Source: Rhizophagus irregularis
Lineage: Eukaryota
Length of the DNA: 64,000 bases
Assembly: GCF_026210795.1 (NCBI RefSeq)
Contig: NC_089436.1
Location: forward strand, 186,001-250,000
Direction: 5' to 3'
Below, in pieces: positions 23,920-56,401 of this stretch. Position 1 is the first letter of the stretch. The number at the start of each line of letters is the position of its first letter. Under the pieces are notes generated by a model. The model was not told the origin of the DNA. It did not search any database and saw nothing but the letters and a program-made list of their open reading frames with translations. Position numbers and translations under genes: made by a program.

Positions 23920-23930
23920 TTCCTCCTCTT
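23920..23930 (-). other. Polypurine tract
   Basis: AAGAGGAGGAA, 2 nt before the 3' LTR on the minus strand. Confidence 0.8.
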
Positions 23931-32327: not shown

Positions 32328-32344
32328 CCTGGCAGGAATCACCA
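32328..32344 (-). other. Primer-binding site
   Basis: TGGTGATTCCTGCCAGG, 2 nt after the 5' LTR; complementary to a tRNA 3' end ..GGAATCACCA (tRNA-Val-like, inferred). Confidence 0.75.
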
Positions 32345-32346
32345 CT

Positions 32347-34788: not shown

Positions 34789-35770
34789 TTACATATAAAT
34801 TGAACTTTCAAAAAACTTTACAGCCATTTGTAGGGTAATTTGACTACATGCTATAAGAAGAGGATATTTGGGATCATTACATGAGTTAACAAAATCTCTA
34901 TATCTTTTTAGAAATGATTTTATAACAGAAAAACTAGTCTCTATAGGATTAAAGTCTGGAGAATAAGGAGGTAAAAATTCAACACGCCCACCAAAAGCTT
35001 CTATATAATCTATAAAAATATCATTATGATGAATTCGTGCATTATCAAGTACAAGTACACTATGATTATTAGGATATGAATTCATCTGAGGTACCTAATA
35101 ATGTAAAAGAAAAAAAAGTAAATAAAAGAAATAAATATAACAAAATCATATAAAATGGCTAATTTTAATATATCACAGTTGAAATAACAAATTCTCTAAA
35201 TCTTTCTTTTGTACAGCTGCCTTCCATTATATCTACTGCAATAAATCCTTGTAATGATAAGGTAGGTAATATTATATATCATACATCACGTACAAACACG
35301 TTTTTCTTTATTGCCAAGGTATTTTTAAAAGAATACCCATACTCACGAGACAAACTACGTTCATCTTTTGAAGCTTCATCCATAAAAATAAGTTGCTCAG
35401 GTCTATAATCATGTCCAACTTTTGCAATAAATGTATTTCTGAGGAGTTCATTTTGCTCATGAGCTGCTCGATGTAACTAATAAAAAAATATTTAGTAAAT
35501 CTAATAAGCCAATATTATTTATAATAATTTCAAAAAAAATTTTACCTTTTTCCTACTAATTCCACAATAAACTAAAGAATGCCATAGAGTTGAAATAGAA
35601 ACTAATTTTCCTGTCCATAATTCGAGTTCTCCCACTAATTCATCCAAATACCAATCCACTTTTTCTTTGACTAAGTCTTGCAATATCTAAAGTGAAAATA
35701 AATTAGTAAAAATTTTCATTTATAAATATTCCTTTTATATTTGTAAATTACCTTCATCTCATTTCGATTT
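34789..35770 (-). pseudogene. IS630/Tc1-family (DDE_3) transposase, intron-containing, 5'-truncated
   Basis: Exons give FMDEASKDERS, LVLDNARIHH, FLPPYSPDFNPIE; GT-AG introns; premature stop; N-terminus lost next to the Polinton-like TIR. Confidence 0.85.
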
Positions 35771-35859: not shown

Positions 35860-36315
35860 GTCATCGGGCTGGATGTGGGAGGTGCAAGCACCTCCCACCT
35901 CCAGGTCTACGACCCGTCACAGTACCTATATGGCCCCTACGGGGCTCAGGAATCCCCCATATATCCTCCACAATCCTCCACATAGATCCTCCACAAAAAT
36001 ATATAACAAAAAAGGATAAAATAAGGGAAAAGAGAGGAAAATAAGAGGGAATCAGAAGAGTGTGGAGGATGTGGAGGATATTTTAAAAATATCGGGAGAG
36101 GGATTCCCCCAGAAAAAAGTTTTGATTTTACCCCCAGATCCTTCACATCCAGAACATCTTCCACACGTACAGGATTCCGTCCGATCATCTGTATAAGCTA
36201 ATGAGATAGCAAACCAGGTAAGTTAGCAGGTAAGCCCCTAGAAGGTCTATAAAGCCAGTAAGACCAACCCCGTCCTGCCCCCGTCAGAAAAAATAAGTAA
36301 TTGAACAATGGGTAT
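35860..36315 (+). repeat. Left TIR of the Polinton-like element
   Basis: GTCATCGGGCTGGATGTGGGAGGTGCAAGCACC...AATTGAACAATGGGTAT, inverted copy of 55935-56401; contains TCCTCCACA repeats and hairpins. Confidence 0.92.
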
Positions 36316-36344
36316 ACCATAAGTAACCTATAAGGACAGATAAC

Positions 36345-36713
36345 ATGTATACCCCGCACGCAGTATCAGTAATCCCCGAACTTGTAGGCCATATCCTGGA
36401 ACACATTCCAAGTAGCAATTTTGGGCCACATCTTTTAGAAGTCAGCCCAATCTGGAAAGCCAAAGCTGAACGAGTACTCTAGAAGCGGCATAAAAAAGCT
36501 GAAGAGGCATACGACAGGGCAGTAGAAAAGAAGGAAAAAGCAAATGATGCTCTTGGTCGATCGGAGGAGAAGGATAATAGAAATCGTGACCTAGGTGAAC
36601 TTGAATGGAAGGCATATCAAAAGGCTTGTAAAGAGTTAACGGACACTAGAAAAGAGCTAACTATAGTAAAAGGAGCTCTTGAGCGGTTTGGATTTCAGAT
36701 ATATGTAGTTTGA
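36345..36713 (+). pseudogene. F-box-like protein with coiled-coil tail (one premature TAG at 36480)
   Basis: MYTPHAVSVIPELVGHILEHIP..LLEVSPIWKAKAERVL*KRHKKAEE..; F-box pattern IPEL..IL..I..V...W. Confidence 0.6.
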
Positions 36714-36933
36714 AAAAGGGGAAGGGAAGATTTAGAGCAGTCGTAAAGGTTTGTGGTTTATAGTTTTTTTTTTACCCCTAGAAGATAACCAGATATAACC
36801 AGAGGACCGCAGAATCGCAGGACCATAGGACTACAGGAGGGTAACCTGGTAGGAGTGCAGATCTTTGGAAAAAATATTCGGCAATTGAAGATTAGGTAAC
36901 TATAAATTAGTACTCGATTTGATAGAACAAAAA

Positions 36934-39494
36934 ATGACTGCCCAAACTAGCACTCAAGCTCAAGTTATCCCCAAGTTTGGTGAACAGAAGAAGGCTTTTA
37001 GTATTGATGAGCTTAAACGGCTCATTAATGCTGCAAAGAATATGAAGGATCTCAATCAAGCTAAAGGTTATCTTTGCAGTTACTTTATCCCCTGCTCCAA
37101 CCCGCATGGAGTCTTCATGTGGCGATCAGAAATCAAAAACCTCGAGCACATCCCTGATAAAAATATTAATAAACTTATCCGTCCAATTACCAAAGTCTTT
37201 TACACACAATCTGAACAGGGTCCTTCACAAAAGGTTGAATTTAATATCAACAAATGGTTTATGATTGAATATAGTACTGTATGTGTAGCTACCTGTGACC
37301 CTCAAAAATCCCGTATCTTTAAACTAGGTGGCCAACTTTATCTCAATATCTTTCCAGAATTCCTCCATATCCTGCGTCCGATATCCACTTTTGAATCTAC
37401 AATCCACCTCGCGGTTAAATTTATCTTCTCTCACATTCAGGATATCTGGTGTTCAGGCGATTGGAATCTTACTGAGTATATCATAAAGTGGTTGGCCGGT
37501 GTGGCAGCTGGAAGGAAAATGTATTCGATTCTCTACCTGAAATCTGGACAGGGTTGGGGTAAAAGTATTATAACAGATTTCATTCAACGTAGTGTCTTAG
37601 GTACTCAACTTGTTTATAAAACCAGCGATCCTCAAACGATTCTTGGAAGTTTCAATGGGCAATTACAGGGTAAGGTTCTTCTCCTTCTCGAGGAAATGCC
37701 TACAGAAAAAAGCCAGTAGAATAATCTGTATTGATCATTGAAGGATAAGGTAACAGGCGACATAATGGAAATCCATGAAAAATATAAGACGCCAACACAT
37801 TACAAAAACTTTATATCTACTATTGTACTCACCAATGAAAATGCTCTCAGAGTGGAAAATGATGATAGGCGCACAGTATTCTTGGATGTGTCACCATCCC
37901 GCAAGGGAGACCTCAACTACTTTAAGAAACTCGGTGATGCTATGAAATATCCAGGTGCCAGTGAGGCATTCTATGCTTACTTGAGAGTCATTGCAGACGC
38001 TTACCCGGACTTCAATGGGAATCCACCACCTATGACAACATCTAAGCAGGATCACATCATATCAACTCTCCCACCGCTATTTCAATTCATAAAGGACACT
38101 TACCTCATAGTAAAAAATCATATAACCGACCTACCTGTTCAAGAATTTTATAGGGTATATACTTCATACTGTGAAACTCATTGCATTTCACCCCTATCAA
38201 AGATCAATGCATCTAGAATCCTATCAAATGAGCTAAGTATAAAAAGTAAAAAAATGCGTATAGGTAAAACAACACCACAAGTTTACAGTATATCTAGGGA
38301 GGATCTATATAAGAAGTTTCTTGGCAAAAACTGGATACATGAAACAGATGAAATTGATATAGAAGGAATTGATATAGATATTCCTGAGAAATCCACATCT
38401 GATCCCAAAGCCTTAGAGAAGTTCTTGGCAAATATATATAGCATTCCTGCTAATAATCCACAAGACGTACAAGAGAAACCTGCTGAGAAAAAACCTGCTC
38501 CTGTTGAAGAAAAACCTACTGAAGAGCAACCAGTTTCCAAAAAGACTCCACCACCAGTACCACCCAAGCCCAATTGCTTGAAGGTAAAACCTGCACCTGT
38601 TATCAAAGAGGACCTTATTCCTGAGGAACCTTCAGCTCCCATAGAGTCAGGCACTGATGAAATTATAGACAGTTTCTCAGACTGTTATCTATCTGATGAA
38701 GAACCTGATCAAGAAGATGAGTCGCCTGCTGAAGAACCTGCACTTAAAGCTGTTGATGACTACGATGTCTTAGATGACTTGCTATCTGACTTAGATTCTA
38801 TAACCGCTAACCCAGTTCTTGAGCAACAACCTGAGTCTCCTGCAGAATCTTTTGCAAAATCCAAATCCCTCGCAGATTCCAAATCTTCTACAGAACCTGT
38901 AGTAGAACTGACTCTCAAAGAGCAACCTATCCCAGAACCCGACACAGAACTAGAAGTTGACCAGGACCCTGAACCAAAAGAAGGTACTCGAGCACACTGG
39001 GCTTGACATGAAAGGTGCCAATGGGATCGTAAGCCATGGGTCAAGAATTCAAAGGACCAGGTCTTCAATGATCTCTACAATATAGGTAAGGATTTATGGG
39101 CTAAGTACCAAGACGCATCAGACGAGTATGACTGGGAAATACTCACGTTTGAAGTAGAGGAATGTCCCACAACACGTATTGAGGACAAGTACCAGTACTA
39201 CTTTAGGAGGTAGTAGACCACTTCAAGGACTGGATCGAATATAATGGGAACTTACCTAAAACACCTAGCCGTAAAGAACTCGCAGATCTAATAAGAGTAT
39301 ACAAGAAGGATCGTGATGCCGAGATTATTCCTATTACCTCCGGTTATGAAACTATGAAGATGAATACGGGTAAGGCACGAGAAATCCCAGAGGAGCGTCC
39401 AAAGACCAAGATGGAACGCCAGTGGGAGGCTGCTAATGGATTTGTAGACGAGTTGGATATTGATGAGGCCTGTGATATGATTGACTCCTTTTAA
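36934..39494 (+). pseudogene. D5-like SF3 helicase with long Pro/Glu-rich C-terminal region (premature stops at ~37717, ~37732, 39004; frameshift ~39210)
   Basis: Walker A SGQGWGKS, Walker B LLLLEE, motif C IVLTN, arginine finger DDRR; ORF pieces are colinear across single stops. Confidence 0.88.
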
Positions 39495-39577
39495 TAAGAT
39501 AAGCGCCTCTTAGTTATTTTTTATTTTTTATATAAAAAACCTATATTACAATTGAATACAATTCATAGTTATATCAA

Positions 39578-41433
39578 ATGGCCTATTCAAAAATTGCACG
39601 TGCTTTACCTACAAGACCAGATATCAAAGAACTACAGTATTCAGGCGCAAGATTTTCTAGAAGAGCTATTGCCAGACTTGGACAGCAACTCCAATCCCGT
39701 ATCCAACTCATAAATTTCAGATCCTGCTCCCCTATGAAAACTGGAAACCTGGTGGATGGACATCAGGAAACCAACCAGCCAGCCTCTTTTCACTCTTGGA
39801 CCATTATGATGAAGCACAACTACCAGATAATGCAGATCCTGATTACTTTGAACGATTCATAATTTATGTGAGAGATGCTCCACCGGTTGGAGGAGGATGC
39901 AATGGGGAGCTAAATGATTGCCTGTATGAATGCCTGAAGCATATCTATGGTATATTCTCTAAAATACCCGAGACCATAAAAAAGCCTGAATATATCAAAA
40001 AGGCATTAGGTCTTAATCGTGATGCTCCAGTTCCAGTCTCATATATGGATAAGGTTGAACAACTTGCAGGAAGCCTTGCACTTAATATTGTAGGGGATTC
40101 CACTCGAATTTCCAAGAGCAAATCTGACAGACATGCAACCCTCATCCTGTCTGAAGGCCACTACTCTCTTGCACTGAATCCCGGAAGACTTCACCCTAGT
40201 AAATTAGATAGAAAACTAAAGTCTCCCTTTGTTTATTGTGAAGATGGGGTTAATAATGTAGTAACAATATACAATGGTAAGACAGTTAAGTCTCTTACAG
40301 TTGGACAGTTTCAGAAAGGTAAGAACTCTGATAGTTACTCCTTCATCCCTATTGAGAAGAATCGTAAAACTGGAATATATGAAACACTTGAGGAAACATA
40401 CCAGAGGATCCATGAAGAGCGGGATTCCTTTCTACAGGCTACAAAGAAGTTCGGTCTAGGAATCGACTTATCTTACCACAACTGGTCGTACAAGAGAACT
40501 GCTCTCTGGCTTTTTGAACGGTTTAGTGTAGGAGTTCCAGCCAATGATCCTCTTGATCCAGTCGAAGCAGAGTGGATAAGTGATGCAATGATGGGAGGTC
40601 TTATCTGGGCAGATAATGAATGGAAGGGCTATGGAAGACAATACGACGTGACAAGTTTGTATCCAAGTATTCAGCAATCGAATGCTAACTTTCCAATCCA
40701 ACAAGGTAAGTTTCAAATACTCAAAGACTTTGTAGACTACAGAGGTTATGCCTTGTATGGATTATTTCATGCTAATGTAAGTGGTAATGACATTCTCTTC
40801 CGACAGAATAAGAGGAGAGTCTATACATTCATTGACTTACAACGAGCAAAGAAACTTGGTCTTGATATACAGTTAATCCAGGATGGAAAGCCAAATGCCT
40901 TGATATATGACAGAGAAGCAAGAATTTCTGGGACTGTAATATTTGGTGAGTATGTTCACTTTCTCTTCAATATAAAGAACCAGGGTGGCGTGGCTGGTCG
41001 TGTTGCAAAGAGAGTTCTCAATACATTATGGGGAGCACTCTGCCAGAGGAAACGCAATTACAAGACACTCACCACAGATCAAACAGATCCATTCAAGTTT
41101 CCGGAAGGCCACATACTTGACTCCATCATACCAGTAGGATCTGACCAGTGGCGATTCCAATTCACAAACCCAGGTAGTCCCTTCAAGGGTGAGTATCCTA
41201 GGATTGCTCCATTCTTATTAGCACATGGACAGAAGATGACTTCAGAGTTATTAGAACCATATAAGGATAAAGTACGACGCATCCATACAGATGGATTTAT
41301 TCTAGAGGAACAGCCGAGTAGTCCTACACTTATCACTTGTCCAGAAAATGCATCCAAAGCATTGAAAGCTCTCAAGTTTGAAACCGCAGGATACTGCCAT
41401 GTGAAAAATGCAAACAAGGTTATCTGGACATGA
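39578..41433 (+). pseudogene. Compact protein-primed family B DNA polymerase (frameshift ~39700)
   Basis: Pol motifs MGG..YDVTSLYPS, KRVLNTLWG, RIHTDG; N-terminal NDCL..GHY OTU-like pair. Confidence 0.88.
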
Positions 41434-41546
41434 TTGCCAAGAATGCAGTTGGATTTACAGTAGGTATATATATTTTTTCTTGCTTGAATGTAAAGTTAAT
41501 TTGAAGATTCCTATTTATTACAAAGTACAAAAAAGTATAAGGAATC

Positions 41547-42017
41547 ATGTCAACATATACTGAATTAGCAAGCATTATTAACAGCACTGACAGCATTAGT
41601 GATGAAGTTATTTATGATGCATCATGCAATCAGTTCACCATTGTCTCTGATGAAACTGTCCTCAAGATTATCCGTGCATTAAAAGACACTATAGTAGTCG
41701 CATTAGTATCTGGGTTTAGCAAAACCAGCTACCTTGTCCAGGATCATGTGAAGTATATCAAGAGAATCCAGACAGCAAAGTCTCCTGTATCATATGTGAA
41801 GTTCGTGGCCAGAAAACTCTTCCCAGATAATGCAGCATATACTGCTAAGATAGCAAAGATTCGTGAATCATACAAGAATAAACAAGCTCTTTTAGACAAA
41901 CTTGAGGCCCTCTTCGAGTTGTATTATAATGTAACTAAGGACTCATTAACAGGTCCCCCAAAGCGAGCTGTCACTATGAATGAGGCTGAGAAAACCTTAG
42001 CAGAACTTCTTGCATAA
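41547..42017 (+). CDS. Hypothetical protein of the Polinton-like element
   Basis: Intact 156 aa ORF with the shared upstream TTGAAG motif. Confidence 0.65.
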   Translation: MSTYTELASIINSTDSISDEVIYDASCNQFTIVSDETVLKIIRALKDTIVVALVSGFSKTSYLVQDHVKYIKRIQTAKSPVSYVKFVARKLFPDNAAYTAKIAKIRESYKNKQALLDKLEALFELYYNVTKDSLTGPPKRAVTMNEAEKTLAELLA

Positions 42018-42110
42018 GCGGCTCCTGTACAAATTTAGTTTATATTTTTTATCCATTTGTAATGGGCATACAGTAATTGAAGATGGCTATAGTATAAGTA
42101 ACATAACATC

Positions 42111-42527
42111 ATGTTGGACCAATTACCAGTAGAAATAGTCGAACGCATTGTTGCAAAGATCCCAGATACTGACCTTATTGCAGCGAGTAAAGTAGATAGT
42201 GTGTGGTGGCAGGAGGTTCGTCAAGAAGCATATAAGAGATGGAAAAATTACGCTACTACAATTGGGCATGTCCAAGCTCTTAGAAAGCTGTTTGAAAAAG
42301 GGAATATTGACTGGATATCATTTGAAGATGTAAACGACTTCTATAAAAGATGGATAGACCGCCTCACCAAGGATCAGCTTTATATTATGGAGAAAATGCT
42401 TAGGAATGGGATGGTCGTGGACCCCTAAGAGAGGGAAACCATAGAGCATGCATTAAGTGAACAAAGATGGGGAGGCGACCCTTGGGGACTGAACTGGGAG
42501 TGGAACGAATGGACTCAACAGGAGTAG
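42111..42527 (+). pseudogene. F-box protein (premature TAA at 42426)
   Basis: MLDQLPVEIVERIVAKIPDTDLIAASKVDSVW is a canonical F-box; frame continues past the stop to ..WTQQE*. Confidence 0.8.
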
Positions 42528-42551
42528 CTTATTTATCGGGTATCCTCATAT

Positions 42552-42779
42552 TTCTTGACAAGAACTGATGACCATGTAACCTTATCATCAGGTATCCTTG
42601 CATTTTTTCGACAAGGATTGATGACCATGTAACCTTATCATCAGGTATCCTTGAATTTTTTTGACAAGGATTGATGACCATGTAACCTTATCATCAGGTA
42701 TCCTTGCATTTTTTAATAAGGACTGATGACCATGTAATCTTATCATCAGGTATTCTTGTATTTTTTGATAAGGACTGAT
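42552..42779. repeat. ~53-bp tandem repeat (4-5 units), continued at 44469-44492 after the LINE
   Basis: Units GACAAGGATTGATGACCATGTAACCTTATCATCAGGTATCCTTG with internal TGATGA/TCATCA inverted pair. Confidence 0.85.
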
Positions 42780-44468
42780 TAACCTTGGCACTCCTGATGT
42801 TTCTATGGGTTGGTCTTGGGTACAAGTCCTTGATGGCGCTGGTTTTTTCCAATCTATCGCTGCTTACGCTCATGGAATTTTTCACAATTGGCCTTCTTCT
42901 ACAAGAGCTGAAATCGCCGCTATACATGCTGCTCTTACAGTCACTCCTCCGTCTTCAATGGTCACTATTCATACTGACTCTCAATCTGCCATAGATGGTC
43001 TTCGTCTATGTGCTACCTTTTCTTATTCCAATAGTAGGCTTTATTACAAGACCACCAATTTTGAACTTTGGGCTATTATTGAACGTCTCATTTCCTCCAA
43101 ATCTTTATCCGTCATGGCTGTTAAAGTAAAAGGTCACTCTGGTAATTTCTATAATGACTACGCAAACTCTCTGGCCAACTCTGCGCATACTTCTTCTTCA
43201 GCAATTCTTCTTTCTGATCTGGATCAAGTATCTCCTCACGATTTCTTATTAAAATATGATGATATTTTATGCGAATCCAACCCACGAAGCCTATTTAAAC
43301 AATATTCGCAAATGCTGTGGATGCATAGATTAACGCGTTTATCGCATTTTAACTTTACCATTGCTTTATCCTCTATCTCAGATTTCGTGATTGATTGGGA
43401 TCTTACCTGGTTCTCGCTTAATTCTGAACCTCAGCATGATGCTTCATTTACTCGTGCTCATGCTTCCTTTCATCGCACCCTCAAATTCAAACTCTTTTTG
43501 GAAGATTTGCCTACCTTGGAACATCTTAAAAGAATTCGCCCGAACTTGTATATTGACATCTTATTGTGTCGTTCGTGCCTCGACTCCAAGGAAGATTTCA
43601 TGCACTTGTTTATGTGCAAATGTAGACGAATCGCTATGGAACAGATTCTCCTCTCCTACCAACATCACTTTATCAACAAACTTCAAGAAGCTGGTGATCT
43701 CGTTAAGAAAGATCCCTCTTTAATTATTAACAAATTTAAATCTCTTCCTTGTTGGTCCTTTTCTTCTTCAAATTGGACTTCATATAGCCTTGTCCATGGC
43801 TGCCTTCTGAAAACCTTTGTCGAATTTTTTGAAGAACTTTCTATTCCACGTAACTCTGCGATGAAGGTTATCTCTGCTATTCACAATTACTTTATCCAAA
43901 AGATTAGAAAACGAATTTGGCTACCGCGCTCCTATGATAAATCTAAATGGGAAGACGCGATGAATATTACTCATAAACTCAAACTTTCTCGGCCTTCAAA
44001 TTTGCCAAAGTCTACGTACTTACCTTTCTCTACTTTACCTCCTCCGACCCTTTCCGACGCCGCACGTGACTCCGACGTTGATTATTTAAAGAACTCGATG
44101 AAATATGGTTTGCCTTGGTTCAATCACTATTCGGGTTTTATGGGTCGTCTAACGGTGCAACTTACTAACAGCTTTAGCAGGGTGGTGTGTCGATTTTAAT
44201 AATGGGCGCATTGTTCGTTGGTTTGTTTGCATAGTTGCCTCTTCTTAGGTTGAAATATATCTAGGCGGGGGATCAGGATAGTTTTAGTGTTATGCGATTT
44301 TTTTTCCTTTTCGAATTAATTTTATAGCTTTATTACTGTTTTGGAGACTATATAGTTTTGTTTTTAGTTAATTTTATTTTTCTTTTTGTACTTTGAAAAT
44401 TTTATTTTATTTTTGTAAATTCGTTAAATAAATTTAATAAAGATAAAGGCTACTATGCCATGTTTGCC
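42780..44468 (+). mobile_element. 5'-truncated non-LTR retrotransposon (RNase H + C-terminal CCHC), ORF 42805-44199
   Basis: RNase H SSTRAEIAAI..HTDSQ..KVKGHSGN..N.YA; zinc finger CRSC..EDFMHLFMC; 15-bp TSD TTGATAAGGACTGAT (42765-42779, 44469-44483). Confidence 0.9.
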
Positions 44469-44552
44469 TTGATAAGGACTGATGACCATGTCACTTGGTT
44501 ATTGTAAATTGAAGAAAGCTATTAGGTATGTAGACACATACAGAAAAAAGAC

Positions 44553-45134
44553 ATGTCTTACCCTTATATAGCTAACCCTATAACTGGACGTCCAATTATT
44601 ATCGGTGGAGATACCTTTAATCGAATAGTTATGGAATCCCATGATTATATTGATGGAAGGCTTGTTTGTAGACAAACTGCACCTCCACCTGAGGAGCAAC
44701 CTGTATATTTAAATACAGATACAGGACGTTATGTTCGACGTGGTACTAGAACATATCATAGACTGATTGAGAGTGACTATGAGGTAGTTGAGGACTACTA
44801 CCTTGTCCATTATGAAGAAGAGGAGCTTATAGAGGAAATCATCAATGAAACATGCTATAATGAGGAAAATCTTGATGGCCAGCGATTAACTTTTAATGAT
44901 ATACAAGAAATCAGGGCTGCTATTCAGGCTGACCAAGATGAATATGATGATTTTATCTTACAGCAGGATACGACTAACGGGACACCTTCCTCCGGTCCTT
45001 CTGGTCATCCACGAACTTTGGAGGACCATGTCCTGAGACTTACAGAGCTTAATATTGAGTTGTGTAGGGAATGTCTCATGCCTGTAAGCCTAAGTGACTT
45101 AACGGACAAGTTGTACAAGGACTGCTCCGAATAG
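44553..45134 (+). CDS. Hypothetical protein with two short NPxTGRxI/V repeats and a C-terminal CxxC
   Basis: NPITGRPIIIGGDTF and NTDTGRYVRRGTRTY; CRECL; upstream AAATTGAAG. Confidence 0.65.
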   Translation: MSYPYIANPITGRPIIIGGDTFNRIVMESHDYIDGRLVCRQTAPPPEEQPVYLNTDTGRYVRRGTRTYHRLIESDYEVVEDYYLVHYEEEELIEEIINETCYNEENLDGQRLTFNDIQEIRAAIQADQDEYDDFILQQDTTNGTPSSGPSGHPRTLEDHVLRLTELNIELCRECLMPVSLSDLTDKLYKDCSE

Positions 45135-45179
45135 TTACTTAATTTTGAATAATTCTTTTTTACATAAAGAAAGATAGCC

Positions 45180-45740
45180 ATGTCAACATCAATCGTAATA
45201 AACCAGTGCCAAAACTGTGGAGTAATCACTCCAAAAACAGCACATAGAGGATTATCCAGTGTATTATACAGACAGATTATAAAGAAGATTAGTGATGAGA
45301 ATGACCCTCTACAAGCCTTGGGACTTGCTAAGGATAAGTTAGTTCAGATCATTCATCGGGCAAGTAATGTGGACTTTACACAATTGTTTACACAAAGACT
45401 GGATATGAAAATTATGGATGGAGAGCCATATGAAGATATTAGGAAGTGGCTTCTCGAACAGCTTATAGCCATAGGTTGTGACAGTGGAGAAATTGCTTTA
45501 TATCAATTTCTAAGGGATACATATTTAGATGGTATTGACGAGCCTTTCACTACATTCTATGAGAACTATGTAAATCATATAAGTAATCCAATGACTAAGA
45601 ACTTTGCTTCTCGTGCTTTAGGAGCAATAGGGTTGAAGGCTAAGATGTTAAGGATTAACTTTGAAGGCCGTAAAAAAAGTGCTATGATTCTTAGAGCTTC
45701 TGCAGACGAATTACTTGATATTCTCACAAGATACTATTAA
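45180..45740 (+). CDS. Hypothetical protein (N-terminal CxxC; C-terminus resembles the helicase winged-helix region)
   Basis: LYQFLRDTY..FTTFYENY..NPMTKNFASRAL parallels helicase LFQFIKDTY..VQEFYRVY..SPLSKINASRIL. Confidence 0.65.
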   Translation: MSTSIVINQCQNCGVITPKTAHRGLSSVLYRQIIKKISDENDPLQALGLAKDKLVQIIHRASNVDFTQLFTQRLDMKIMDGEPYEDIRKWLLEQLIAIGCDSGEIALYQFLRDTYLDGIDEPFTTFYENYVNHISNPMTKNFASRALGAIGLKAKMLRINFEGRKKSAMILRASADELLDILTRYY

Positions 45741-46682
45741 TCCCTACTTGTAATGCTCGACGGTCCATGTGGCTCTTAGAAAAGATCTGTAGAAGGACTT
45801 CAATACCTTCTATTATTTTTTTATTATCCAGAGGGTGACTAGACTTCAGGGCTTCATATCGGGAGAATAACTCCTTCACATTTTCAGTTTTCAGAGTTTC
45901 AGTCTTTGCAGTCCTACCCTGTACTTTTGCTAAGAAGTCCTGAAAGTCAGCTCCTAGGATCTTACCAGAGAGTCCATAAGCTTCCCGAAAAACATATTTA
46001 ATCCAGGTATCTGTATTCTTGGCTAAGACACCAGGTACAAGTAAATTTTTACATTCTTTAGGGGATGGAAATACCCGAGCAAATTCAATCAAGTGTCCAC
46101 CTTTTTTTGCTTCAGATACAGCTTTCTAACCATAGGGACTAAACTTGGATCGAACTGTGATTGAACTGGGTTCAGACTGAGATCGAACTGGGTTCAAACT
46201 TGGATCAAACTGAGATTGAACTGAGATTGAACTAGGATCGAACTGAGATTGCTCTGTGATTGAACTGAGACTAGTATCCCATCTTACTCGAATGGACAGT
46301 GGATCACTCTTGGACCGTCTAAGATCAAACACTACAAATTCATGTTGTAGAGTAAGATCATCAATTACTGGTGCTAAGGTTGCTTGCCGAAACTAGAGGG
46401 TTTCGGCAGAATGGCGTACGCGAAACTGCCGAAACTAGTTTTGCGAAATCATCAAGAAATGCCGAAACTGTGAAACCTATCAAAATCGCGAAACTGCCGT
46501 AACTTGCCGAAACTGTTTCGGCGTTTCGGCAATACTTTCTATATGATTTAATTAGAGTTTCGGCATTTAAACAATTTATAAGAATAAAGATTAAAGACAA
46601 TATGATTTTTTGTATGTAAATATTTATTTTATAATATTTAATATTAAACTAATAAAATACACGATTAAAAATATAATAAAAA

Positions 46683-47375
46683 TTAAAATTTAATAATATC
46701 TTTATCTTCTATGTGGGGACCTGCTTCTACCTCTTCTTCTATCTCTACTTCTGTCCCGTCTTCTATCTCTACTTCTATCTCGTCTTCTATCTCTACTTCT
46801 ATCTCGTCTTCTATCTCACTTCTTGATCTACTTCTTGATCGAGACCTAGATCGCGACCTTCTTCTTTCCCTTCGCAATCTATATTCATATCGACATCGAT
46901 CATGCGCAGCATGCTGCCGTCGATACTCTCGTCTAAACAGATCTAAAATCCAATAAAAATATTAATGAATTGAATGAATTGCCTAAATAAAATTAATTTA
47001 AAATAATAATTAATAATAATTACCGGTTTGTAACCAGAATTCATCGTTCATATCAGCAAAACACGCTCTATCGAAACTATTTGGGCTTATAATAGGAATG
47101 TCGTCATCATTATTATTTATTATCCTACTGAGGTTTTCATAACCTCGTTTGAGGGCATTCCATTTTGTTTGGCATTGCCTGGGTGTCGCTGCAAATCTCG
47201 TTGCAACAAACACCCTATTTGCTATTATTGTCCATGCATTTACATGATGACGGTTTGCAATTCTTTCGAATTGCTGATGTAAGTTTCTCCGCTCCGCGAT
47301 TAATTGCCTAGCTGCGTTAATCGTCCATTGGAATACTGGTGGTGGCGGTGGGACAAAAGGTACTAATGCTGCCAT
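46683..47375 (-). CDS. Myb/SANT (trihelix-like) protein with RS and acidic tail; exons 47375-47024 and 46942-46683
   Basis: WTINAARQLIAER..AWTIIA..TPRQCQTKWNALKRGY; GT-AG intron joins in frame to DLFRREY..RSRSRSRS..EIEDEIEV. Confidence 0.8.
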
Positions 47376-48044
47376 TTTTTATTTTTATGATTTTTTCGTA
47401 ACTTGAAATTTGAAAATTAAATACAATTTGAAAATTAAAATACAATTTGGTTTTGAATTGCGAAAAAAAAATTCAAATTTCATAATATTTATAATAATTT
47501 TAAAATTCGTTATAATGTTTAAAACATGAACTGATGAACATAATAACATTCTACATAATTAAAGTATTTGTAACAAAATAAACACAGTTTTGATTCTAAT
47601 GTAATAAATTTAATTAACGCAGTTCTAAATTTTTTTTTGTAACGCAGTTCTTAAAATTTATTGATCTAATGTAATAAATTTAATTAACGAAGTCCTTAAA
47701 ACTTATTGATTCTAATATAATATGCTTATCCTTATTCCTTAATTAAATTGCACTATTTTTAAAATATAATATGCTTATCCTTATTCCTTAATTAAATTGC
47801 ACTATTTTTAAAATATAATATGCTTATCCTTATTCCTTAATTAAATTGCAATGTTTTAAAATATAATATAAAATTACAATTGCCTGCATTGCCTGCATAA
47901 TTATATGTTAACTGGACTTTGATCGCGAATATTTTGCCCTGCATAATTACATCATTTATTTCCTAAATAGTATCATTATTTAAATCACATGATATTAGAA
48001 TTAATTCTCATTGGATTAACTATTGTAATTATTTCTCATTATTA

Positions 48045-50345
48045 TTATTCCTCATTATCATCATAATTATCGTCATTATTATCACCGTCATCCATACCTA
48101 ATACATCATCTATATCATAATCATAGTCACCTTCTCTGGGTCTCTTGTTATTACCACTATCATCAACTTTATCATCTTCCGCATTATTTTCATCTGAATC
48201 ATCCAATATATCTCTTGGAATATCGCCGATTTCACTAGTAATTGAATCATGCGATAAATTAACAAATTGATCAATCCATAGACTTTCGATTACTACACGG
48301 CAATTGTCTTCGGGTATTGTTTCGCCGCTTGTAGTTAATCTCTGAGTAGAAGCTTGCTCCTCATTATATTCCTCATCGTCATCTTCTGCAAAAGCTTCTG
48401 CAATACGTATATTGATCTCATCATCACTAAGACGAGTATTCTTTTTTTGATCAATTCCATAAAATCCAAGTTCAGTTTTTGAATTGGATTTCCAATACAA
48501 AATTAATTTGCACATGGATTCTAGTTTATCCACATTAAGATTTAAGCGATGTTTATGAAATAGCCATCCTAAAGTCGAAAATCCACGTTCGCAAGTTGCT
48601 GAGTTAGGACATATTGCAAATAGATAACTTGCAATTCTTGGTAGGACATCTGGTTCTGGTTCAGTATTAATATATTTCCACCAATTCACGGGATTATCTT
48701 TAGCAAAACCGATATCTAGGTCAAATGGCTCTTGCTCATTAATATATTTCTGTATTTGATCACATAAAGTTTCAGCTTCGTAACGGTCGAAACCTAAATT
48801 TTTCCCGATTGAAGCTGCACATTTGATAATTCTCATGAGGGCGCATTTTTTAAGTGGCGCGTTTCTAAATCTGGGATCCATAAAAAAACAAGTAATATAC
48901 TTATCATCATCGAATTCATCAAATCTTTCATTTATTACTTTGATACAATGACTTCGGAATGCAGGATTTAATGATTTGGGTAACTTTTTTAATGTAGCTG
49001 CAAGTCTTGCCAAGCTCAGGAAACAATCTGCAAGTGTAGCTCTTCTCGATTCTAATGAAAGTACCGCTTTTCTTAGAGGATCCAGAACAAATCCAAGAAC
49101 TCGTAAATTTGAAAAAAAATTTCTCGATTGAATAATCGGTTTTATTTTATCATTTGTTAGCACTTTATCGTGATCGCTGGCCATTTCTTCTAGTGCTGAT
49201 TCCAAATTTATTACTGAATTTACGGATTCACTAGCAGTAGTCCAGCGTGTCTTGCAATATAATTTTAATCCTCCTCCACTAATTCCTTTTTCTTTAATTA
49301 TTTGAGCAAGTTTTGCATTAGCCTGATGAGAACTTCTAAAAAAGGTTGTCAAAATATTAACACGTTTTAATAAACGTTCCCCAAACTTCTCCTTGACGAT
49401 GTCGCATGCAATTAAATTGATAGAATGTGCAACGCATCGCACATTCTCAATCTTTGGATGATTCTCATGTATAATTTTTCGTGCATTACGAACATTGGCT
49501 GCATTATCGGAAACTACAGCACATATTCGATCTTCTCCAATACCTTCTATAACCTTTTCAATTACCGTAACTAGATATTCTGCAGTGTGCGAATTTTCAG
49601 ACAAATCAGAAAGTTGATAAAGATATTCTTTACGCGACGGAGTCATTACAATGAAGTTCCAAATTGAACGATGTGTACCAGACGTCCAACCATCAAAGGC
49701 TAAATTATAAATTAATATTATATAATAAGTAAGATTAAATAAAAATGACGTATGATAGCCTATTTAATTTAACAAACCTAACGTTAAATTCGTTTCCTTT
49801 TCAAGCTCAGAATTAACTTTGAAGTTCACTTGAGCTAATTCACGTTCAAGTAGTTGATTTACTAATACTTCCCTTGTTGGTGTATTGTACCCGGCATTAA
49901 GCTCTTTTATAAAATTGATGAAAAAGGGATGTTCCACTACTCTAAACGCAATTCCGCACGCAATAAAAAATTTAACTAATGCACAATTAATTCGTGTACA
50001 TCTTTGTTCGTTAAGCTCTGTTGAATCATAGTAATCATCCATGTTACTTTGACCTTTAGAATATTTTCTTTTTTTGGATGACTTGGACTTATCTTGCCGT
50101 TCCATTACTTTAGTCATATACCTTCTAACAACTGCTGCTGGCGCATCTGGACAATGGTTTGAAAGATGCTCTTCGAGCTTTGAAACTTCACCGCGTGACC
50201 ATGTATTCTTACAGTACTTGCAGGAGGCGGCAAATTTGCCAGAACCAACAGCTTCTCCTTTATTAATATCTTCCCAAATGCTATTAGGTGGCCGACCTCC
50301 TCTATTTTTCATTTTAATGGGTGAATCTTCTATATGATCAGTCAT
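48045..50345 (-). CDS. hAT transposase, apparently intact; exons 50345-49778 and 49699-48045
   Basis: BED finger CKYC..HLSNHC; spliced junction gives TLAFDGWT; SDNAAN, CVAH, TRW, CERGFS (hATC dimerisation domain). Confidence 0.93.
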
Positions 50346-51468
50346 TTGAAACAGTTTATTATTAATATTATTATTAAGAAAACGGAAGAAAGTAAAAGAA
50401 ACTTTAGTTCAGTGTTAAAGAAGATGACGGAATAGGGTTTATTAAATGCATGTTACGCATTTTCCTTTAATGAATATAAGCCCCTTAAAAAAAAACTGTA
50501 AAAACGTGTAATATCATAATATTAATATGGGAGTTAGAAATGAAAATTCTAACACTAGATAAAGCTTAAAAGAACTAAGACGACGGTAAAATATTGAAGT
50601 TTAATCTTTTATCTGTAGATTATTTGATCATCTAAATTATATTATTAATTGGTGTAACTTGGCGTAACTATATGCAAATCTTATGATCAACTATGCAGAA
50701 ACTACGGAGAAACCTATTATAGAGGTTTCGGCATGTTTCGGCAGTTTCGCAATTTTGACAGGTTTCGCAGTTTCGGCGTTTCGGCGTTTCGGCACTATAT
50801 AAGAGGTTTCACCTTTCGGCATTAGGCCAAACAGGTTTCGGCAAGCAACCTTAACTGGTGCTAATGATTCTGATTCTTCTGTATATAGGCGGATGATTAT
50901 CTTAGTATCTGTAAGGCTTCCATGACCTCCATGCAGTGAGATGTAGTTAACATTTTCTTGAATAGCCTTAGGAATGGCAAAGAATCTTTGGGCTACATAA
51001 ATACATGAAATATTTTTGTGTCGTCCATGTGTAAAGTAACCAGTGATGAGATCCTGGATTTTTTTAGGTGCATCCATCAGATCCTCAAAGATTACCACAG
51101 TAGCTTGAGTAGGGTCGAAGGAGTCAATCTCTGGAATCTTACTATGGGTTACTGCAGTAAATGGGATCTTCTCCTCTTCGAAAAAATCATGTACAACTGC
51201 CCACTTCAGCTCGTCAAGATATCTGCCAACTAAAAGTACTGCATCACATAGTATATACCGATTACCATCCTCCTTTGCCTTCTTGTCACCCATTAACAAG
51301 TTAATGATCATAGTTGTTTTACCTGAGTCTGAGCTACCTGCTACGGCTAATTGAAAGGGCCATGATGATGGAGCAAACTCATTGCCTTGTCTTGAGTCGG
51401 TCGTGTACTCGTCCAAATTGTATACATAAAGATCCATTTGAATTTTATTCTAACTTAGTTTAAATACT

Positions 51469-53678
51469 ATGTTGACATCAATACCAATTCCAGTTTATAC
51501 TCCTTCAGAACCTACTGGACCGCCTCCTGCACACTTGGCCAATGAAGAAGATGATGATGAATTAGTTAGAATACTAAAGGCTCATGCAAATTTATTGACT
51601 ACCAGGGGTCGTTTAACTGTTGATTCAGAGATACAGGAGGCAAATAATCAAATCAAACATATTATTAATATATTAATGTATCGCTGTAAAGCAAAACATG
51701 AAGAACTTGGTATTACAAAAGATTTGTTAGTTTTTGCACAAGGTAAGATAAATGCATTTGATGAAACATTTACTAATTTAGAACGACAATTAGTTATTAT
51801 ACGTGCTGCCAATGATAATTTTATAGAAGAAAACCATAACCTGCAAAGAGATTATGATACTATGGTAGAGCTTCGTCGACGGGCTATAGGTGAACGTAAT
51901 CAGGCATGACATGAACGTAATGTATTACAAGCAGATTATACTCAAGCAGTAATGGATCGTAATGAGGCTCAAAATGCTGTGAATCGTGGTAATATCCTTC
52001 TAAATCATTGGCGGCTGAGGGCTACTCAGACTGAAGGACAATTTGTATTGGCTAATATGCAACTTGAACAGGTTAATGCACAGCTAGCATATGCTAATAA
52101 TAGGGTGCGTTTTGGGATTCAGACATTAGGGAGACTTAGGAATAGACTTTTCCAACAGATAGCTACTCTTAGAATTCAGGTACAATGGTTTCGAATTAGA
52201 CAATTGAACCCTCCTCCACCTCTTTTAAACAATCCACTAGAGACGATATGGCTACCACTGCGATAGGATTGCCAATTTTTGAGGGTAAAGCTACTGATGA
52301 TATTGATACATTTGTTAGGCTTTATATGGGTTATCTTGATACTATCAATCTTAACCCATACGCTGCTGGAGGGCCACCAGAGTCTTGGAAAAGAGCTATG
52401 GGTATACTTAGAAGCTGCATGGCTGGTAAAGCGGCTGAATGGTTTGATCAAGAAATTACAGGAAAAAATTGGGAACTTTCTGGTATCACTTCAGCTGGTG
52501 GAGCTAATTTAGCTGCTTTTGTAGCATTAGTAATACCAGAAGCTGCAGGAGGACCGAATGCAGGTATCTATGTAAATGGGTCTGAAGTATAAATCTATTC
52601 AAGAGATCCAGTTAATGCATTAGCAACTATCAAAGCAGCATTTATTCCTACTCATGATTTAATGGGTGAAGATGAAGCTTGGAAAAGAGCTGGTGCTCGT
52701 CCGACAGATAGAGTTGCTCCGGCTACTGCAGATGCTGGTGTTGCTGCTAATAATAATCATTCTATAGTTTTTCCAGTTATTAAACCTAACCAGGCGCTTT
52801 ATTGGCTTAGAACACAATTTCCAACTGTTTTAGATGAAAAGAAACGTATCCGTTTTAACAGTCTTTACCAGGAAAATGAGCCAGTTGATGCATTTTATAG
52901 AACTGTAAAGAGGGCTGGAAAATTACTAAGACTAACTGATGATCTTATTATCGACCAGTTCTTTAGAGGTCTTTCAGCTGATAATATTTTCGAAGCAGAA
53001 AGGTTTCACAATCTTAATCCTGATGACTTGGTTAGACATCTGAGAAATTTAGAACGGAGAAGGGCTGAAATGCGCTTGGAGTTACAAAATAGAAATCGGC
53101 GACTTCGAGCAGATTACAGTGATGTAACTCAACCTCCGTTAGGAAAACAGGAATCTGTCATACTGACATCAAAGTCAACTGGGGTTACTCAAGAACGATT
53201 ACAAGAGTTGCTTAAGGCTCAGGCTGAAGAACTTACCAAAAATTTCCAGGTGCAATTTAAACAATTACAGGCTCAGCCAGTTCGTAATCCACCAGTCTAT
53301 AGACAGCAGATTAAACCTGTTCGACCAAAACCACAGAGACGTGTTGTTCAGGATCATCAGGATCCTGATTGGGATGATGGTTATGTAGAACCTGATGTTG
53401 GTGATGACCCTGATGCTCCTGAGTGGACTTTGGATGATCATCAAAATGCTATTGATCTTATTATGGGATATAAATGTGGGACGTCTAAAATACTTACAAA
53501 TCAACTTCAGAAGGCTAAAGATAGACGTGATGATCTGGATTTAGCCCGAGCAATGAAAAACCTTGATCTTAACAATGATGCTATGGACATTGATACTGTG
53601 AGTTTTGGTGAAAAGGTAGAATTGAGAGAAAAAGATGGTGATGTCTATATGGTTCGTGTTGGGTCAAAAAAAAAGTAG
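51469..53678 (+). pseudogene. Gag-like polyprotein: long coiled coil + retrotransposon capsid-like domain (stops at 51907 and 52590; frameshift ~52240)
   Basis: LPIFEGKATDDIDTFVRLY..AMGILRSCMAGKAAEWF..LRTQF..FNSLYQENEPVDAFY..IIDQFFRGL follows the Ty3/Gypsy Gag CA pattern also seen in the 27128-32125 Gag. Confidence 0.75.
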
Positions 53679-54415
53679 GTTCGAGTATCTCAAAACTTCT
53701 TAAGTCGTCCCCAAATAAGACAGCAGTTAGCTCTTCTAGTGTGCCCTTAAAAGGCAAAGCAACCCCTGTTAAGATTCCTGTGAAAGTTACTGGTAGTAAG
53801 TCTACACCTGCAAAAGCTGTTACTAAGAATGACTTATTAAGCCTGTTAAGGTCTGCAGACTTTAGGAAATTACTCTGTGAGATTCTTCAGGAGGAGATGA
53901 TGTCTGCTAGAAAAGTCACAGAGATTTCAGATGACTTAGCTAAGGAGGAACAAGAAGAGGATATCAGGGAATACGATCCTATGGATATTGATATAGCTCG
54001 TTTGGAGAATATTAAAGATCTATTAGCACTTAATGGGGAGGTTAATGGGATAGCAATTCAGTGTTTAGCAGACACTTGTGCTAATGCGTCTTTTATTCAG
54101 AGAGAAGCTGCTGAGGAATTAGGGTTGGATATCGACAAGAGTATTACATACAACATATCTGGTGCTCCAGGAACAGGTAGGACATTCGGCATGGTAAAGG
54201 GAGTGTTAATCAAACTTACCCCTGATTATGCTATCACTGAGAATCTTGCAGTTTTAGATGGATACAAGCATAGGGAAATTGGATTGAGCCGGACGTGTCT
54301 GAAATGTTACAATTATGATGTCCATGAATCACGTGAACATGTCGCCCTTACCTGTGATGGAAAGAATGTTTTTATCCCAATAGTTGCTGATGTTAATCGA
54401 GGAGACAAAAAATAA
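53675..54415 (+). CDS. Retropepsin-like aspartic protease in the -1 frame after Gag
   Basis: GEVNGIAIQCLADTCANASFI..ELGL..ISGA..IGLS; frame open from the A AAA AAG slippery site (53669-53675). Confidence 0.8.
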   Translation, partial: VGSSISKLLKSSPNKTAVSSSSVPLKGKATPVKIPVKVTGSKSTPAKAVTKNDLLSLLRSADFRKLLCEILQEEMMSARKVTEISDDLAKEEQEEDIREYDPMDIDIARLENIKDLLALNGEVNGIAIQCLADTCANASFIQREAAEELGLDIDKSITYNISGAPGTGRTFGMVKGVLIKLTPDYAITENLAVLDGYKHREIGLSRTCLKCYNYDVHESREHVALTCDGKNVFIPIVADVNRGDKK

Positions 54416-54441
54416 GACCCTTTAATTCTTCTATTTTTTTT

Positions 54442-55532
54442 TTATTCCCAAAATTTGCGAATTAAGTCAGGAACATCCTCCTTCAACTGGTCAGCAGGTT
54501 CCCAAGTAGCCTCAGTATCTGGGTATCACTCCCACTTAACCAAATACTGGTCTTGACCTTTTCTAATGCAATGCCGAAGTATCTGCTCAGGAACAAATCT
54601 TTCAGGTTGTCCTCTTATCACAGAGTCAGGTGGAGGCTTTTCATTAATAGGAACTACTTGCAATTCCTTTCGGGTATATGCACATCTGAATACACCTAAT
54701 CGACCATGTGGTCCGTTAAGAAGATATGTAGGAGGTTGTTCGGGTGAGAGTATCATTTTTTTGATTACACGAATGTTTGGGTTCCATCTTATGTCACCTG
54801 TACGGAATTTTCCGTAAAGTTTGTTACCAAGTACAGAAATAGGTTTATCTAACTTGACTCTGACACGTGTTCCTTCAGAGAGGAGATCTGTCTTTTTTGA
54901 CACTTTAGGTGATCCTATCGGAATGTCTGGGGGATTTCTCTGCCAGAGTTCATTTACTTTACTCACTATATTATGGAAATCTTCTGACCATTCCATGGAT
55001 GTCACCCCAGTTTTCAACTCTTGTGCAACCATTCGTTTTAGGAGAGGTTCTTGGATTGCTTGGATGGCTCGTTCGGCATATGACTGCTGTTTATGTCTAC
55101 CTAGTTCGCCGAACCTCATCATTACCCTAGGCTTTTCAGGAAAAAATCACGTACCTGGTCGTTAGTGAATTCTGATCCGGAGTCCGTCTCCAGTCGGTGT
55201 GTTGGAGGCTTGATACGATTTCTTCTGTAGATTTTGACAAACCCGTTTAGAACTCTATTTGCAGTCTTATCCTTTAGGGGTTCTGCATCAACTCTCTTTC
55301 CTGCAACTTCCACCACTACGAGAAAATAGTGGAATTTTTTGGGGTCAACTGGCATCTCTGCAAGATCTGCCTGATGTGTTGCATTTAGTTTCCATACAAT
55401 TACCTTTGGACGTTCTGTTGACTTTTCCTTTAGAGGCTTTTTGTATAGGTTGTAGTGCTCTTCACCTTTTAGAATTTGTGCTGGTACTCCAGAGAGATTG
55501 TAGTACTTATAGTAATTCTCTAAGTGTGACAT
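54442..55532 (-). pseudogene. rve (DDE) integrase with C-terminal chromodomain (frameshift ~55125, stop 54526)
   Basis: HQADL, ETDSGSEF, SYAERAI; VRVKL..RW SH3-like segment; chromodomain FVPEQIL..YLVKWE*YPDTEATWEP. Confidence 0.88.
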
Positions 55533-55576
55533 ATTACGACAAATTAAAGAAATGGTTTTAGACTTCAAATCTTAAG

Positions 55577-55908
55577 ATGACACGTTTTTACTGCCTAAAG
55601 TGCAAGAAGGAAACTGAAACTGCTAGTGAAATACAAGATATGACTACAAATGGATGTTATCGTTTACATGGTGATTGTACAGTTTGTGGCATGCATAAGA
55701 ATACTTTTACTGGAGTAGACTGGGTGATCAAGAAGAAGACTAAGGAGAAAAAGAAAGAAACCGCTGCTAAGAGATAGCAGACGGCTTACAATCAGCAATG
55801 CAAAAAATCAGACAGAAAATTTTAGATGCTGATGACACTTGCAAGTAGTGTATTGATAAATGTCTTAAAGAGCAAAAAAGAGAAAGACGGATTAGTACTG
55901 CCTTCTAA
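55577..55908 (+). pseudogene. Small zinc-ribbon protein (DUF5679-like) with basic tail, disrupted
   Basis: FYCLKCKKET..GDCTVCG; stop at 55775 followed by a continuing CKK..CIDKC segment. Confidence 0.6.
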
Positions 55909-55934
55909 ACTTATCTGGATACACTCTATTTCCA

Positions 55935-56401
55935 ATACCCATTGTTCAATTACTTATTTTTTCTGACGGGGGTGGGACGGGGTTGGTCTTACTGGCTCTA
56001 TAGACCTTCTAGGGGTTTACCTGTTAATCTACCTAATTTGCTATCTCATTAGCTTATACAGATGATCAGACGGAATCCTGTACATGTGGAAGATGTTCTG
56101 GATGTGGAGGATCTGGGGGGGTAAAATCAAAACTTTTTTCTGGGGGAATCCCTCTCCCGATATTTTTAAAATATCCTCCACATCCTCCACATCCTCCACA
56201 CTCTTCTGATTCCCTCTTATTTTCCTCTCTTTTCCCTTATTTTATCCTTTTTTGTTATATATTTTTGTGGAGGATCTATGTGGAGGATTGTGGAGGATAT
56301 ATGGGGGATTCCTGAGCCCCGTAGGGGCCATATAGGTACTGCGACAGGTCGTAGACCCAGAGGTGGGAGGTGCTTGCACCACCCACATCCAGCTGGATGA
56401 C
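55935..56401 (-). repeat. Right TIR of the Polinton-like element
   Basis: Inverted copy of 35860-36315 with scattered substitutions and one extra TCCTCCACA unit. Confidence 0.92.

Follow-up and report, generated by a model that had tools for sequence, protein, structure and literature searches.

What encloses the DNA of a Polinton in which no Polinton capsid gene can be recognised? The question is raised by an element at positions 35860-56401 of a 64,000-nucleotide stretch of Rhizophagus irregularis DNA (NCBI RefSeq assembly GCF_026210795.1, contig NC_089436.1, positions 186,001 to 250,000 of the forward strand; hereafter the window, in whose coordinates all features are given), where a Gag-like gene and a retroviral-type aspartic protease stand among replication and integration genes of Polinton type. 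Capsid lineage is the main basis on which virus realms are defined; A32 packaging ATPases are known with jelly-roll capsids, and shells of the retroviral-type capsid protein (CA) are known with reverse transcription. The window copy is decayed and belongs to a Polinton-type DNA element that occurs in multiple copies in Rhizophagus. The element has a resident Gag of predicted CA type and a retropepsin, neither a jelly-roll nor an adenain gene can be recognised in it, and we lean, by a modest measure, towards the reading that intact copies package their DNA in a CA-type shell.

The element spans 20.5 kb and is bounded by a pair of terminal inverted repeats (TIRs) at 35860-36315 (+) and 55935-56401 (-), which are 456 and 467 bp long and 93.6% identical over 467 columns in a self-BLAST of the window, as expected from an initial annotation that had reported long TIRs around the cassette from the sequence alone. 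The GC content is ~40% inside the TIRs, compared to ~25-30% outside. The same annotation had treated the span as one element, which holds for its TIR-bounded frame but overlooked two nested insertions, a hAT transposon and a fragment resembling a long interspersed nuclear element (LINE), whose subtraction leaves a core of 14,351 bp. The core consists of, in order, the left TIR, a helicase, a protein-primed family-B DNA polymerase (pPolB), four small open reading frames (ORFs), an ATPase on the minus strand, a coiled-coil ORF, Gag, the protease (Pro), an integrase on the minus strand, a DUF5679 ORF and the right TIR. In the present copy the helicase, pPolB, ATPase, coiled-coil ORF, Gag and integrase are all interrupted, and the retropepsin is the only intact core ORF. 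Transitions dominate the differences between the window copy and its sister contigs, and the aligned segments of P0003 are 95-100% identical to the element locus.

The Gag gene (52248-53678, +), which contains one internal stop, is assigned by structure model and profiles a two-domain CA fold (~residues 1-270) followed by a largely unstructured tail. The AlphaFold2 (AF2) model of the intact relative P0045, which is 87% identical to the window Gag, was built on a 56-row alignment and has a pLDDT of 87.4 and a pTM of 0.79. Structural similarity search of this model against 48,161 chains using VIA-align revealed that ranks 1-39 of the best 50 consist entirely of CA from retroviruses or retrotransposons, together with Arc, PEG10 and PNMA, the best rows being HIV-1 CA (Z of 9.8, root-mean-square deviation (rmsd) of 4.5 over 159 aligned residues) and the RSV C-terminal domain (Z of 9.6, rmsd of 1.9 over 70 residues). 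The C-terminal domain of CA matches with an rmsd of 1.9-2.4 over 67-76 residues, and the first unrelated row has a Z of 4.2. Caulimovirus coat proteins, which enclose double-stranded DNA, are also among the structural neighbours of Gag. A read-through model of the window's own Gag gave the same CA ranking, and its residues 15-196 align with the N-terminal domains of Ty3 and Arc, with ~70 residues matched and an insertion skipped. By the structural alignment, this insertion of ~105 residues (about 72-178) lies within the N-terminal domain of CA. In addition, Atlas assigns Gag to Retrotrans_gag at 0.94, and the relatives P0277, P0311 and P0322 pass the Pfam cut-off of that family. The CA fold anticipated at 52248-53100 was thereby borne out by the AF2 model, the VIA-align ranking, the window model and Atlas, and the Gag of this element is predicted to fold as a retroviral-type capsid with a surface insertion. 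A profile search of the PDB sequences with the Gag alignment gave nothing relevant, and no Rhizophagus element is named among the BFVD rows of Foldseek.

Upstream of Gag, a coiled-coil-like ORF of 265 codons with one internal stop (51469-52266, +) overlaps the Gag start by 19 nt. Gag had been placed 31 bp from the ATPase start codon; the gap is exact (51437 to 51469), but the ORF at that site is the separate coiled-coil ORF, and the Gag with the CA fold begins at 52248, in a different frame. The two-ORF overlap is common to the window and the independent metagenome contig L001, and several distant Gag homologues have a long N-terminal extension fused with CA in one ORF. The coiled-coil-like protein could have a matrix or fibre role. 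No CCHC zinc knuckle was found in the window Gag or its close clade; 9 of the 352 fetched proteins have one, all of them distant. These CCHC-bearing Gags (P0259, P0262, P0273, P0277, P0286, P0307, P0311, P0339 and P0343) share the CA insertion; several have long N-terminal extensions, some an attached protease and none a reverse transcriptase (RT), and they may show the origin of the module.

The retropepsin ORF (53642-54415, +; Asp_protease_2, E = 2e-7) lies in the -1 frame relative to Gag, and an A-run at 53666-53675 (+), in register for a -1 slippery heptamer, immediately precedes the Gag stop. The window and L002 are alike in that Gag ends on the slippery-register A-run and Pro follows in the -1 frame. 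Moreover, a lysine run ends 31 of the 38 full-length Gags that have their own start, many of which are near-copies, and 11 of 13 representatives at 50% identity. The conserved A-run and lysine-run junction argues for programmed frameshifting, and not decay. A second in-register slippery heptamer lies 5' of the Gag start (52224-52230 in the window and 927-933 in L001); the RNA 3' of the two sites folds weakly, at -8.6 and -6.3 kcal/mol with no shuffle control. We do not claim a fusion of the coiled-coil ORF to Gag by frameshifting, for which matching residues occur in 29 of 37 models of one subtype and in 0 of 50 of the other two. The Pro stop (54413-54415) lies 26 bp from the convergent integrase stop (54442-54444), exactly as annotated. 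The ratio of nonsynonymous to synonymous substitution rates (dN/dS), taken from a single pairwise comparison in each case, is 0.05 for CA residues 1-71, 0.14 for CA residues 179-241, 0.18 for the start of Pro (versus L002), 0.01 for the first 45 ATPase codons (versus L001) and 0.46 for the coiled-coil ORF; on one pair each, CA, Pro and ATPase appear to be under purifying selection.

Comparison with sister copies supports Gag-Pro as a resident module of the element. On L001, the ATPase, coiled-coil ORF and Gag occur in the layout of the window. The gene models P0039, P0115 and P0148, which belong to three Gag subtypes, run back into the ATPase region; the identity of their Gags to the window Gag is ~85% for P0039 (68% overall when gaps are counted), ~45% for P0115 and ~48% for P0148. 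In each of these subtypes the ATPase gene and the Gag operon stand head-to-head. In the Gag tree, the first fork of a 20-row clade (support of 100/99) has relatives of the three subtypes on either side. The tree keeps 43 of 56 rows (13 were dropped at <75% occupancy), with P0039, P0115 and P0148 themselves outside it; it is midpoint-rooted with a very long outgroup branch, and we read from it neither a donor nor an order of events. At the other end of the cassette, a diverged sister contig, with 40 differences, runs across the Pro/integrase junction from 54313 to 54645, and among 24 of the 189 loose ends, the long ones inside the cassette match the other Gag subtypes, those of P0048 and L002. 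Among the matches listed, 14 contigs between 20 and 250 kb long have a pPolB match, and 8 of them share their size, taken as a proxy for the same contig, with a contig that has a Gag match. A metagenome scan yielded only two short loci; protein scans and a TIR-pattern scan of viral_contigs gave no match, nor did the scan of genome_contigs.

All of the 22 homologues of 850-920 residues carry a protease family only and no RT, and the longest Gag homologue, among 150 of the 323 profile matches and all other fetched ones, has 936 residues. The self-BLAST of the window found no direct repeat of at least 60 nt around 51440-54440. The initial annotation had seen no RT, RNase H, long terminal repeat (LTR) or target-site duplication (TSD) around the cassette; no LTR, direct repeat or RT was found there, but an RNase H does lie inside the TIRs, although it is that of the LINE-like fragment. 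In the sister copies covered here, Gag stays by the ATPase and Pro by the integrase, a picture different from copies that lack Gag-Pro or carry a double jelly-roll (DJR) capsid, and the cassette does not map to an independent LTR element, no homologue examined being fused to an RT. The CA regions of the Gag subtypes P0022, P0048 and P0063 differ by ~50%, whereas their protease and Gag tail are ~85% identical, which suggests that capsid modules are swapped between copies by recombination.

We then turn to the jelly-roll module expected of a Polinton. The core has six unassigned frames of at least 100 codons, the longest reaching 202 codons; assigned genes lie on either side of the unassigned ORFs. 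Five of the six frames were scanned with Pfam and PHROGs, and none has a capsid or adenain match. A DJR major capsid protein (MCP), the hallmark of Polintoviricetes, was not found by these profile scans. For a single jelly-roll penton there was no profile match either, and Atlas gave nothing usable or only weak matches for the small ORFs (156-193 residues); no scanned ORF has a Pfam match to an adenain-type cysteine protease, and the protease present is aspartic. Table S1 of Krupovic et al. 2014 (PMC4028283) lists two Polintons of Glomus intraradices (R. irregularis), P_Gi1.1 of 11,954 bp and P_Gi1.2 of 11,019 bp, without MCP, penton or adenain, and according to a statement in Bellas 2021 the MCP of the Glomus Polinton was still not found, although other Polintons that had seemed to have none did have theirs identified. 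The lack of a long unassigned ORF and the MCP-less Glomus Polintons of these two papers support the earlier suggestion that Gag-Pro may have replaced the capsid and maturation genes.

The remaining core genes are of Polinton type, and Pfam places the superfamily-3 helicase, pPolB, A32-like ATPase, rve integrase-chromodomain and aspartic protease where the initial annotation had them. The D5-like superfamily-3 helicase (36934-39494, +; DUF5906 and PHROG primase/helicase families) has a long acidic tail and several stops, and its pieces are joined by continuous gene models in sister copies. The short pPolB (39578-41433, +) matches DNA_pol_B_2 above the cut-off (E = 2.9e-7), over profile positions 209-402 of 468 only, and its sequence suggests that it may lack a proofreading exonuclease. 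It is frameshifted near its 5' end in the window copy by an indel visible against sister contigs; its homologues number 189, the intact relatives being 617-646 residues long. The 5' part of the A32-like packaging ATPase (50854-51437, -) has both Walker A and Walker B and matches Pox_A32 above the cut-off (E = 6.5e-9), whereas the 3' piece (46129-46366, -) is severed by the hAT element; sister contigs join 46366 to 50854. The rve integrase with its C-terminal chromodomain (54442-55532, -) is convergent on Pro and broken by a frameshift and an internal stop, and its rve (E = 1.2e-6) and Chromo (E = 8e-5) matches fall just under the curated cut-offs. The element therefore has the TIRs, pPolB, retroviral-type integrase and A32-like ATPase that are hallmarks of Polintons.

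Four small ORFs lie between pPolB and the ATPase. A 156-residue ORF (41547-42017, +) is found in the same place, 3' of pPolB, in sister copies and in R. clarus (P0407, P0410 and P0494); it is followed by an F-box-like ORF of 105 residues (42111-42428, +; weak F-box match, E = 0.006), an acidic ORF of 193 residues with a weak 2-cysteine-adaptor-like start (44553-45134, +; 2C_adapt, E = 0.0012; no usable Atlas match) and an ORF of 186 residues (45180-45740, +) with a possible D5 C-terminal-like domain, a lead only, as its Atlas score of 0.86 falls below the mark of 0.9. Next to the right TIR, a 66-residue ORF (55577-55777, +) is a DUF5679 zinc-finger-like protein (PF18930, E = 5e-16).

Both nested insertions are foreign to the element. 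The hAT DNA transposon (46375-50853, -), identified by BED finger, DUF659 and hAT dimerisation matches in Pfam, has an 8-bp TSD and a 19-bp TIR and splits the ATPase gene; sister contigs joined 46366-50854 across it in 4 of 4 runs. Beside its BED/DUF659 transposase, it also carries a Myb/SANT ORF at 47010-47378 (E = 4e-9), a pairing familiar from PIF/Harbinger rather than hAT elements. The 5'-truncated LINE-like fragment (42780-44468, +; RNase_H, E = 5e-9) is flanked by identical 15-bp TSDs at 42765-42779 and 44469-44483, its target being a 53-bp tandem repeat. We rejected the RNase H as a gene of the element, since it belongs to this TSD-flanked fragment, 7 kb from the Gag-Pro cassette.

Outside the TIRs, the left flank contains a transposase-like fragment (34789-35094), whose motifs we take to resemble those of Tc1/mariner-type transposases, and the right flank (56404-57265) is a 130-bp repeat array related to 22354-22788. 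An intact-looking Ty3/gypsy element at 23398-32866 (-) has 521-bp repeats 99.8% identical to each other, a 4-bp TSD, a 1,665-residue Gag-Pro-RT-RNase H ORF, a separate integrase ORF of 470 residues and ~2 kb of extra sequence before its 3' LTR. It was rejected as the source of the cassette, its Gag being barely similar (E = 0.017) and its protease having no BLASTP match. Further away, three related copies of a 1.4-kb sequence lie at 154-6062, two direct (86%) and one inverted (71%).

Compared to known systems, the element shares TIRs, pPolB, the rve-chromodomain integrase and the A32 ATPase with Polintons/Mavericks, adintoviruses (Polintoviricetes) and mavirus-type virophages. It differs from these in that no DJR MCP, penton or adenain was found, in its CA-fold Gag and retropepsin, and in a pPolB of only ~620 residues. 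A 2026 preprint groups the A32 ATPases of Glomus/Rhizophagus with those of Maverick-Polinton elements. With Metaviridae (Ty3/gypsy) and Caulimoviridae, it has in common the predicted CA fold, a retropepsin 3' of Gag and a gag-pro junction typical of -1 frameshifting. In contrast to them, it lacks LTRs, a zinc knuckle and any RT or RNase H of its own, its integrase lies on the opposite strand, and it has the ~105-residue CA insertion and genes for DNA-to-DNA replication. The family is an evolutionarily maintained Polinton variant, which replicates and integrates in the manner of Polintons, in which the capsid of Polintoviricetes was not found, and which is not a Ty3/gypsy element.

The initial annotation had known of no described family like this while allowing for one, and that caution proved justified. 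Very probably the family is the Glomus Polinton, which has been known for years: P_Gi1.1 and P_Gi1.2 come from the same host species and likewise have no MCP, penton or adenain, and P_Gi1.2 has the ATPase, whereas the window core is longer, at 14.35 kb. Likened by description, the window element and these two are probably of the same family. Gag-Pro was apparently not reported in Krupovic 2014, because the word 'gag' does not occur in the main text. The legend of Fig. 5 in Starrett et al. 2021 (PMC8502044) places the labels 'Matrix/Capsid/NC/Pro' on a PolB element, and the accompanying section 3.4 neither says which element bears these labels nor discusses them. Judging from that section and the legend, we are fairly confident that the labels denote the gene set of the window element, although the window Gag has no NC zinc knuckle. 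The Gag-Pro-bearing gene set has thus probably been annotated once and appears to be unstudied: beyond this legend we found no study of a Gag-bearing Polinton, in a search that covered neither Kapitonov and Jurka 2006, Pritham 2007 nor the supplementary tables of Starrett, and the Maverick passages of transposon papers on mycorrhizal fungi (including PMC8647823 and PMC11952901) make no mention of Gag. 'Rhizophagus glomeromycete fungus MELD virus', which together with the Starrett figure is among the nearest counterparts, is NCBI taxid 2707321, of which a 2022 preprint used, where it is mentioned, the polymerase only; no record of that name is among the homologue matches listed.

How might such an element work? 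The excised linear genome would be copied from its TIR ends by the protein-primed polymerase and the D5-like helicase. Gag and a minority of Gag-Pro, made by -1 frameshifting on the A-run, would assemble a shell that the protease matures, and the A32 ATPase, possibly with the adjacent coiled-coil protein, would load or condense the ~14-kb DNA into it. ATPase-driven loading would explain both a motor kept without a jelly-roll capsid and the lack of an RNA-binding zinc knuckle. A 14-kb duplex would need an inner diameter of ~37-45 nm, near that of known retrotransposon shells, by an estimate from typical densities. With DNA and integrase inside, the shell would then reach further nuclei within the multinucleate hypha, or different strains, and there the chromodomain integrase would insert the delivered DNA. 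Particles, DNA packaging and a functioning 'retro-type shell' are what we infer here. The broader proposal, that Glomerales Polintons are a lineage of double-stranded DNA viruses which exchanged the jelly-roll capsid for a retrotransposon-derived CA shell bearing an extra surface domain, and which use the inherited A32 motor to fill this shell with DNA-replicated genomes, without reverse transcription, is put forward tentatively, at somewhat less than an even chance.

All the residency results would fit equally well if Gag-Pro were resident without packaging the genome, forming particles or assemblies that instead shelter the integration complex, carry mRNA or proteins of the element or restrict competing Ty3/gypsy elements; the DNA would then travel unencapsidated and the ATPase would serve some other function. 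Domesticated CA proteins (Arc, PEG10, PNMA2 and Drt2) are among the structural matches, and an intact Ty3/gypsy element resides in the same window; we regard this explanation as a genuine, if clearly less probable, competitor. Against it stand the nearly invariant start of the ATPase (dN/dS of 0.01), its head-to-head position with the Gag operon in all three subtypes and the lack of a CCHC knuckle in the close clade. Moreover, nine MCP-less Polintons lost both ATPase and protease, as Krupovic 2014 (PMC4028283) reports, whereas the window element retains the ATPase and has a protease of maturation type. It is quite improbable that one of the small ORFs encodes the real capsid, as a highly diverged jelly-roll protein that has gone unrecognised, or that a helper element supplies it, with Gag-Pro in an accessory role: no capsid family was met in Pfam or PHROGs, the longest unassigned frame has 202 codons and stands with the others between assigned genes, and none is given for Glomus elements in the statements of the two papers cited above, even though MCPs at first missed in other Polintons turned up later (Bellas 2021), the copy is decayed, and the scan covered five of the six unassigned frames, by sequence profile.

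Two further explanations hardly compete. That Gag-Pro is the passive remnant of an LTR retrotransposon inserted into an ancestor is suggested by the retroelement origin of its genes, by the insertions (hAT and LINE) that this copy collects and by the CCHC knuckles kept in distant Gag relatives. It is largely refuted by the lack of LTR or TSD around the cassette, while both true insertions have TSDs, by purifying selection, by deep Gag diversification with fixed neighbours and no RT-fused homologue, and by the scant resemblance of the window's Ty3 Gag and protease, and we consider it very unlikely. Equally slight is the chance that Gag packages an RNA intermediate with an RT borrowed from host Ty3/gypsy elements; the element does have Gag, a protease and an integrase of retroviral type, and RT-bearing elements occur in the same genome, but the TIR ends, the element's own pPolB and helicase, genes on both strands and the lack of LTRs and zinc knuckle speak against it.

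Packaging of DNA in a CA-type shell must itself be weighed against several points. The element is known here from genes and predicted structure, and we know of no A32 ATPase that works with a CA lattice. The window Gag reaches only E = 0.17 for Pfam Retrotrans_gag, Foldseek against PDB and BFVD gave nothing at E of 0.001 or lower (the best match, the C-terminal domain of PEG10, being 0.0085), and the Z of 9-10 falls below the ~13 that VIA-align advises for helical bundles; because Z is moderate and Foldseek weak, the call of a CA fold rests on rank separation and on the matching of both domains. The small ORFs were judged by sequence profiles. Linkage is pieced together from partial contigs and gene models; among the matches listed, no contig bridges the ATPase/coiled-coil junction, the pieces breaking at 51423/51438, and 6 of the 14 pPolB contigs of 20-250 kb have no Gag partner. 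No element TSD is recognisable in the flanks of this aged copy, Polinton/Maverick TSDs being 5-6 bp, which may be because the flanks are unlike each other. Finally, dN/dS, from one pair each, reaches 1.2 in the CA insertion and 0.74 in the Gag tail. An outward-facing domain would be expected to give such a pattern, a freely varying insertion in a conserved CA core.

If DNA packaging in a CA-type shell is true, an A32 motor without its capsid and a CA shell without RT would occur in one element, breaking both pairings and joining a replicon and motor of Varidnaviria to a capsid of Ortervirales. It would also answer what became of the capsid of the Glomus Polinton, a question left open where Bellas 2021 treats it. 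Mavericks in R. irregularis are described as recently expanded and often hypomethylated (PMC8647823), and among mycorrhizal fungi their expansion is reported only in Glomerales (PMC11952901); with this expansion, many copies and naturally intact Gag genes exist for tests of assembly and cargo. A protected DNA carrier could be important for how DNA passes among the nuclei and strains of this major symbiont of plants.

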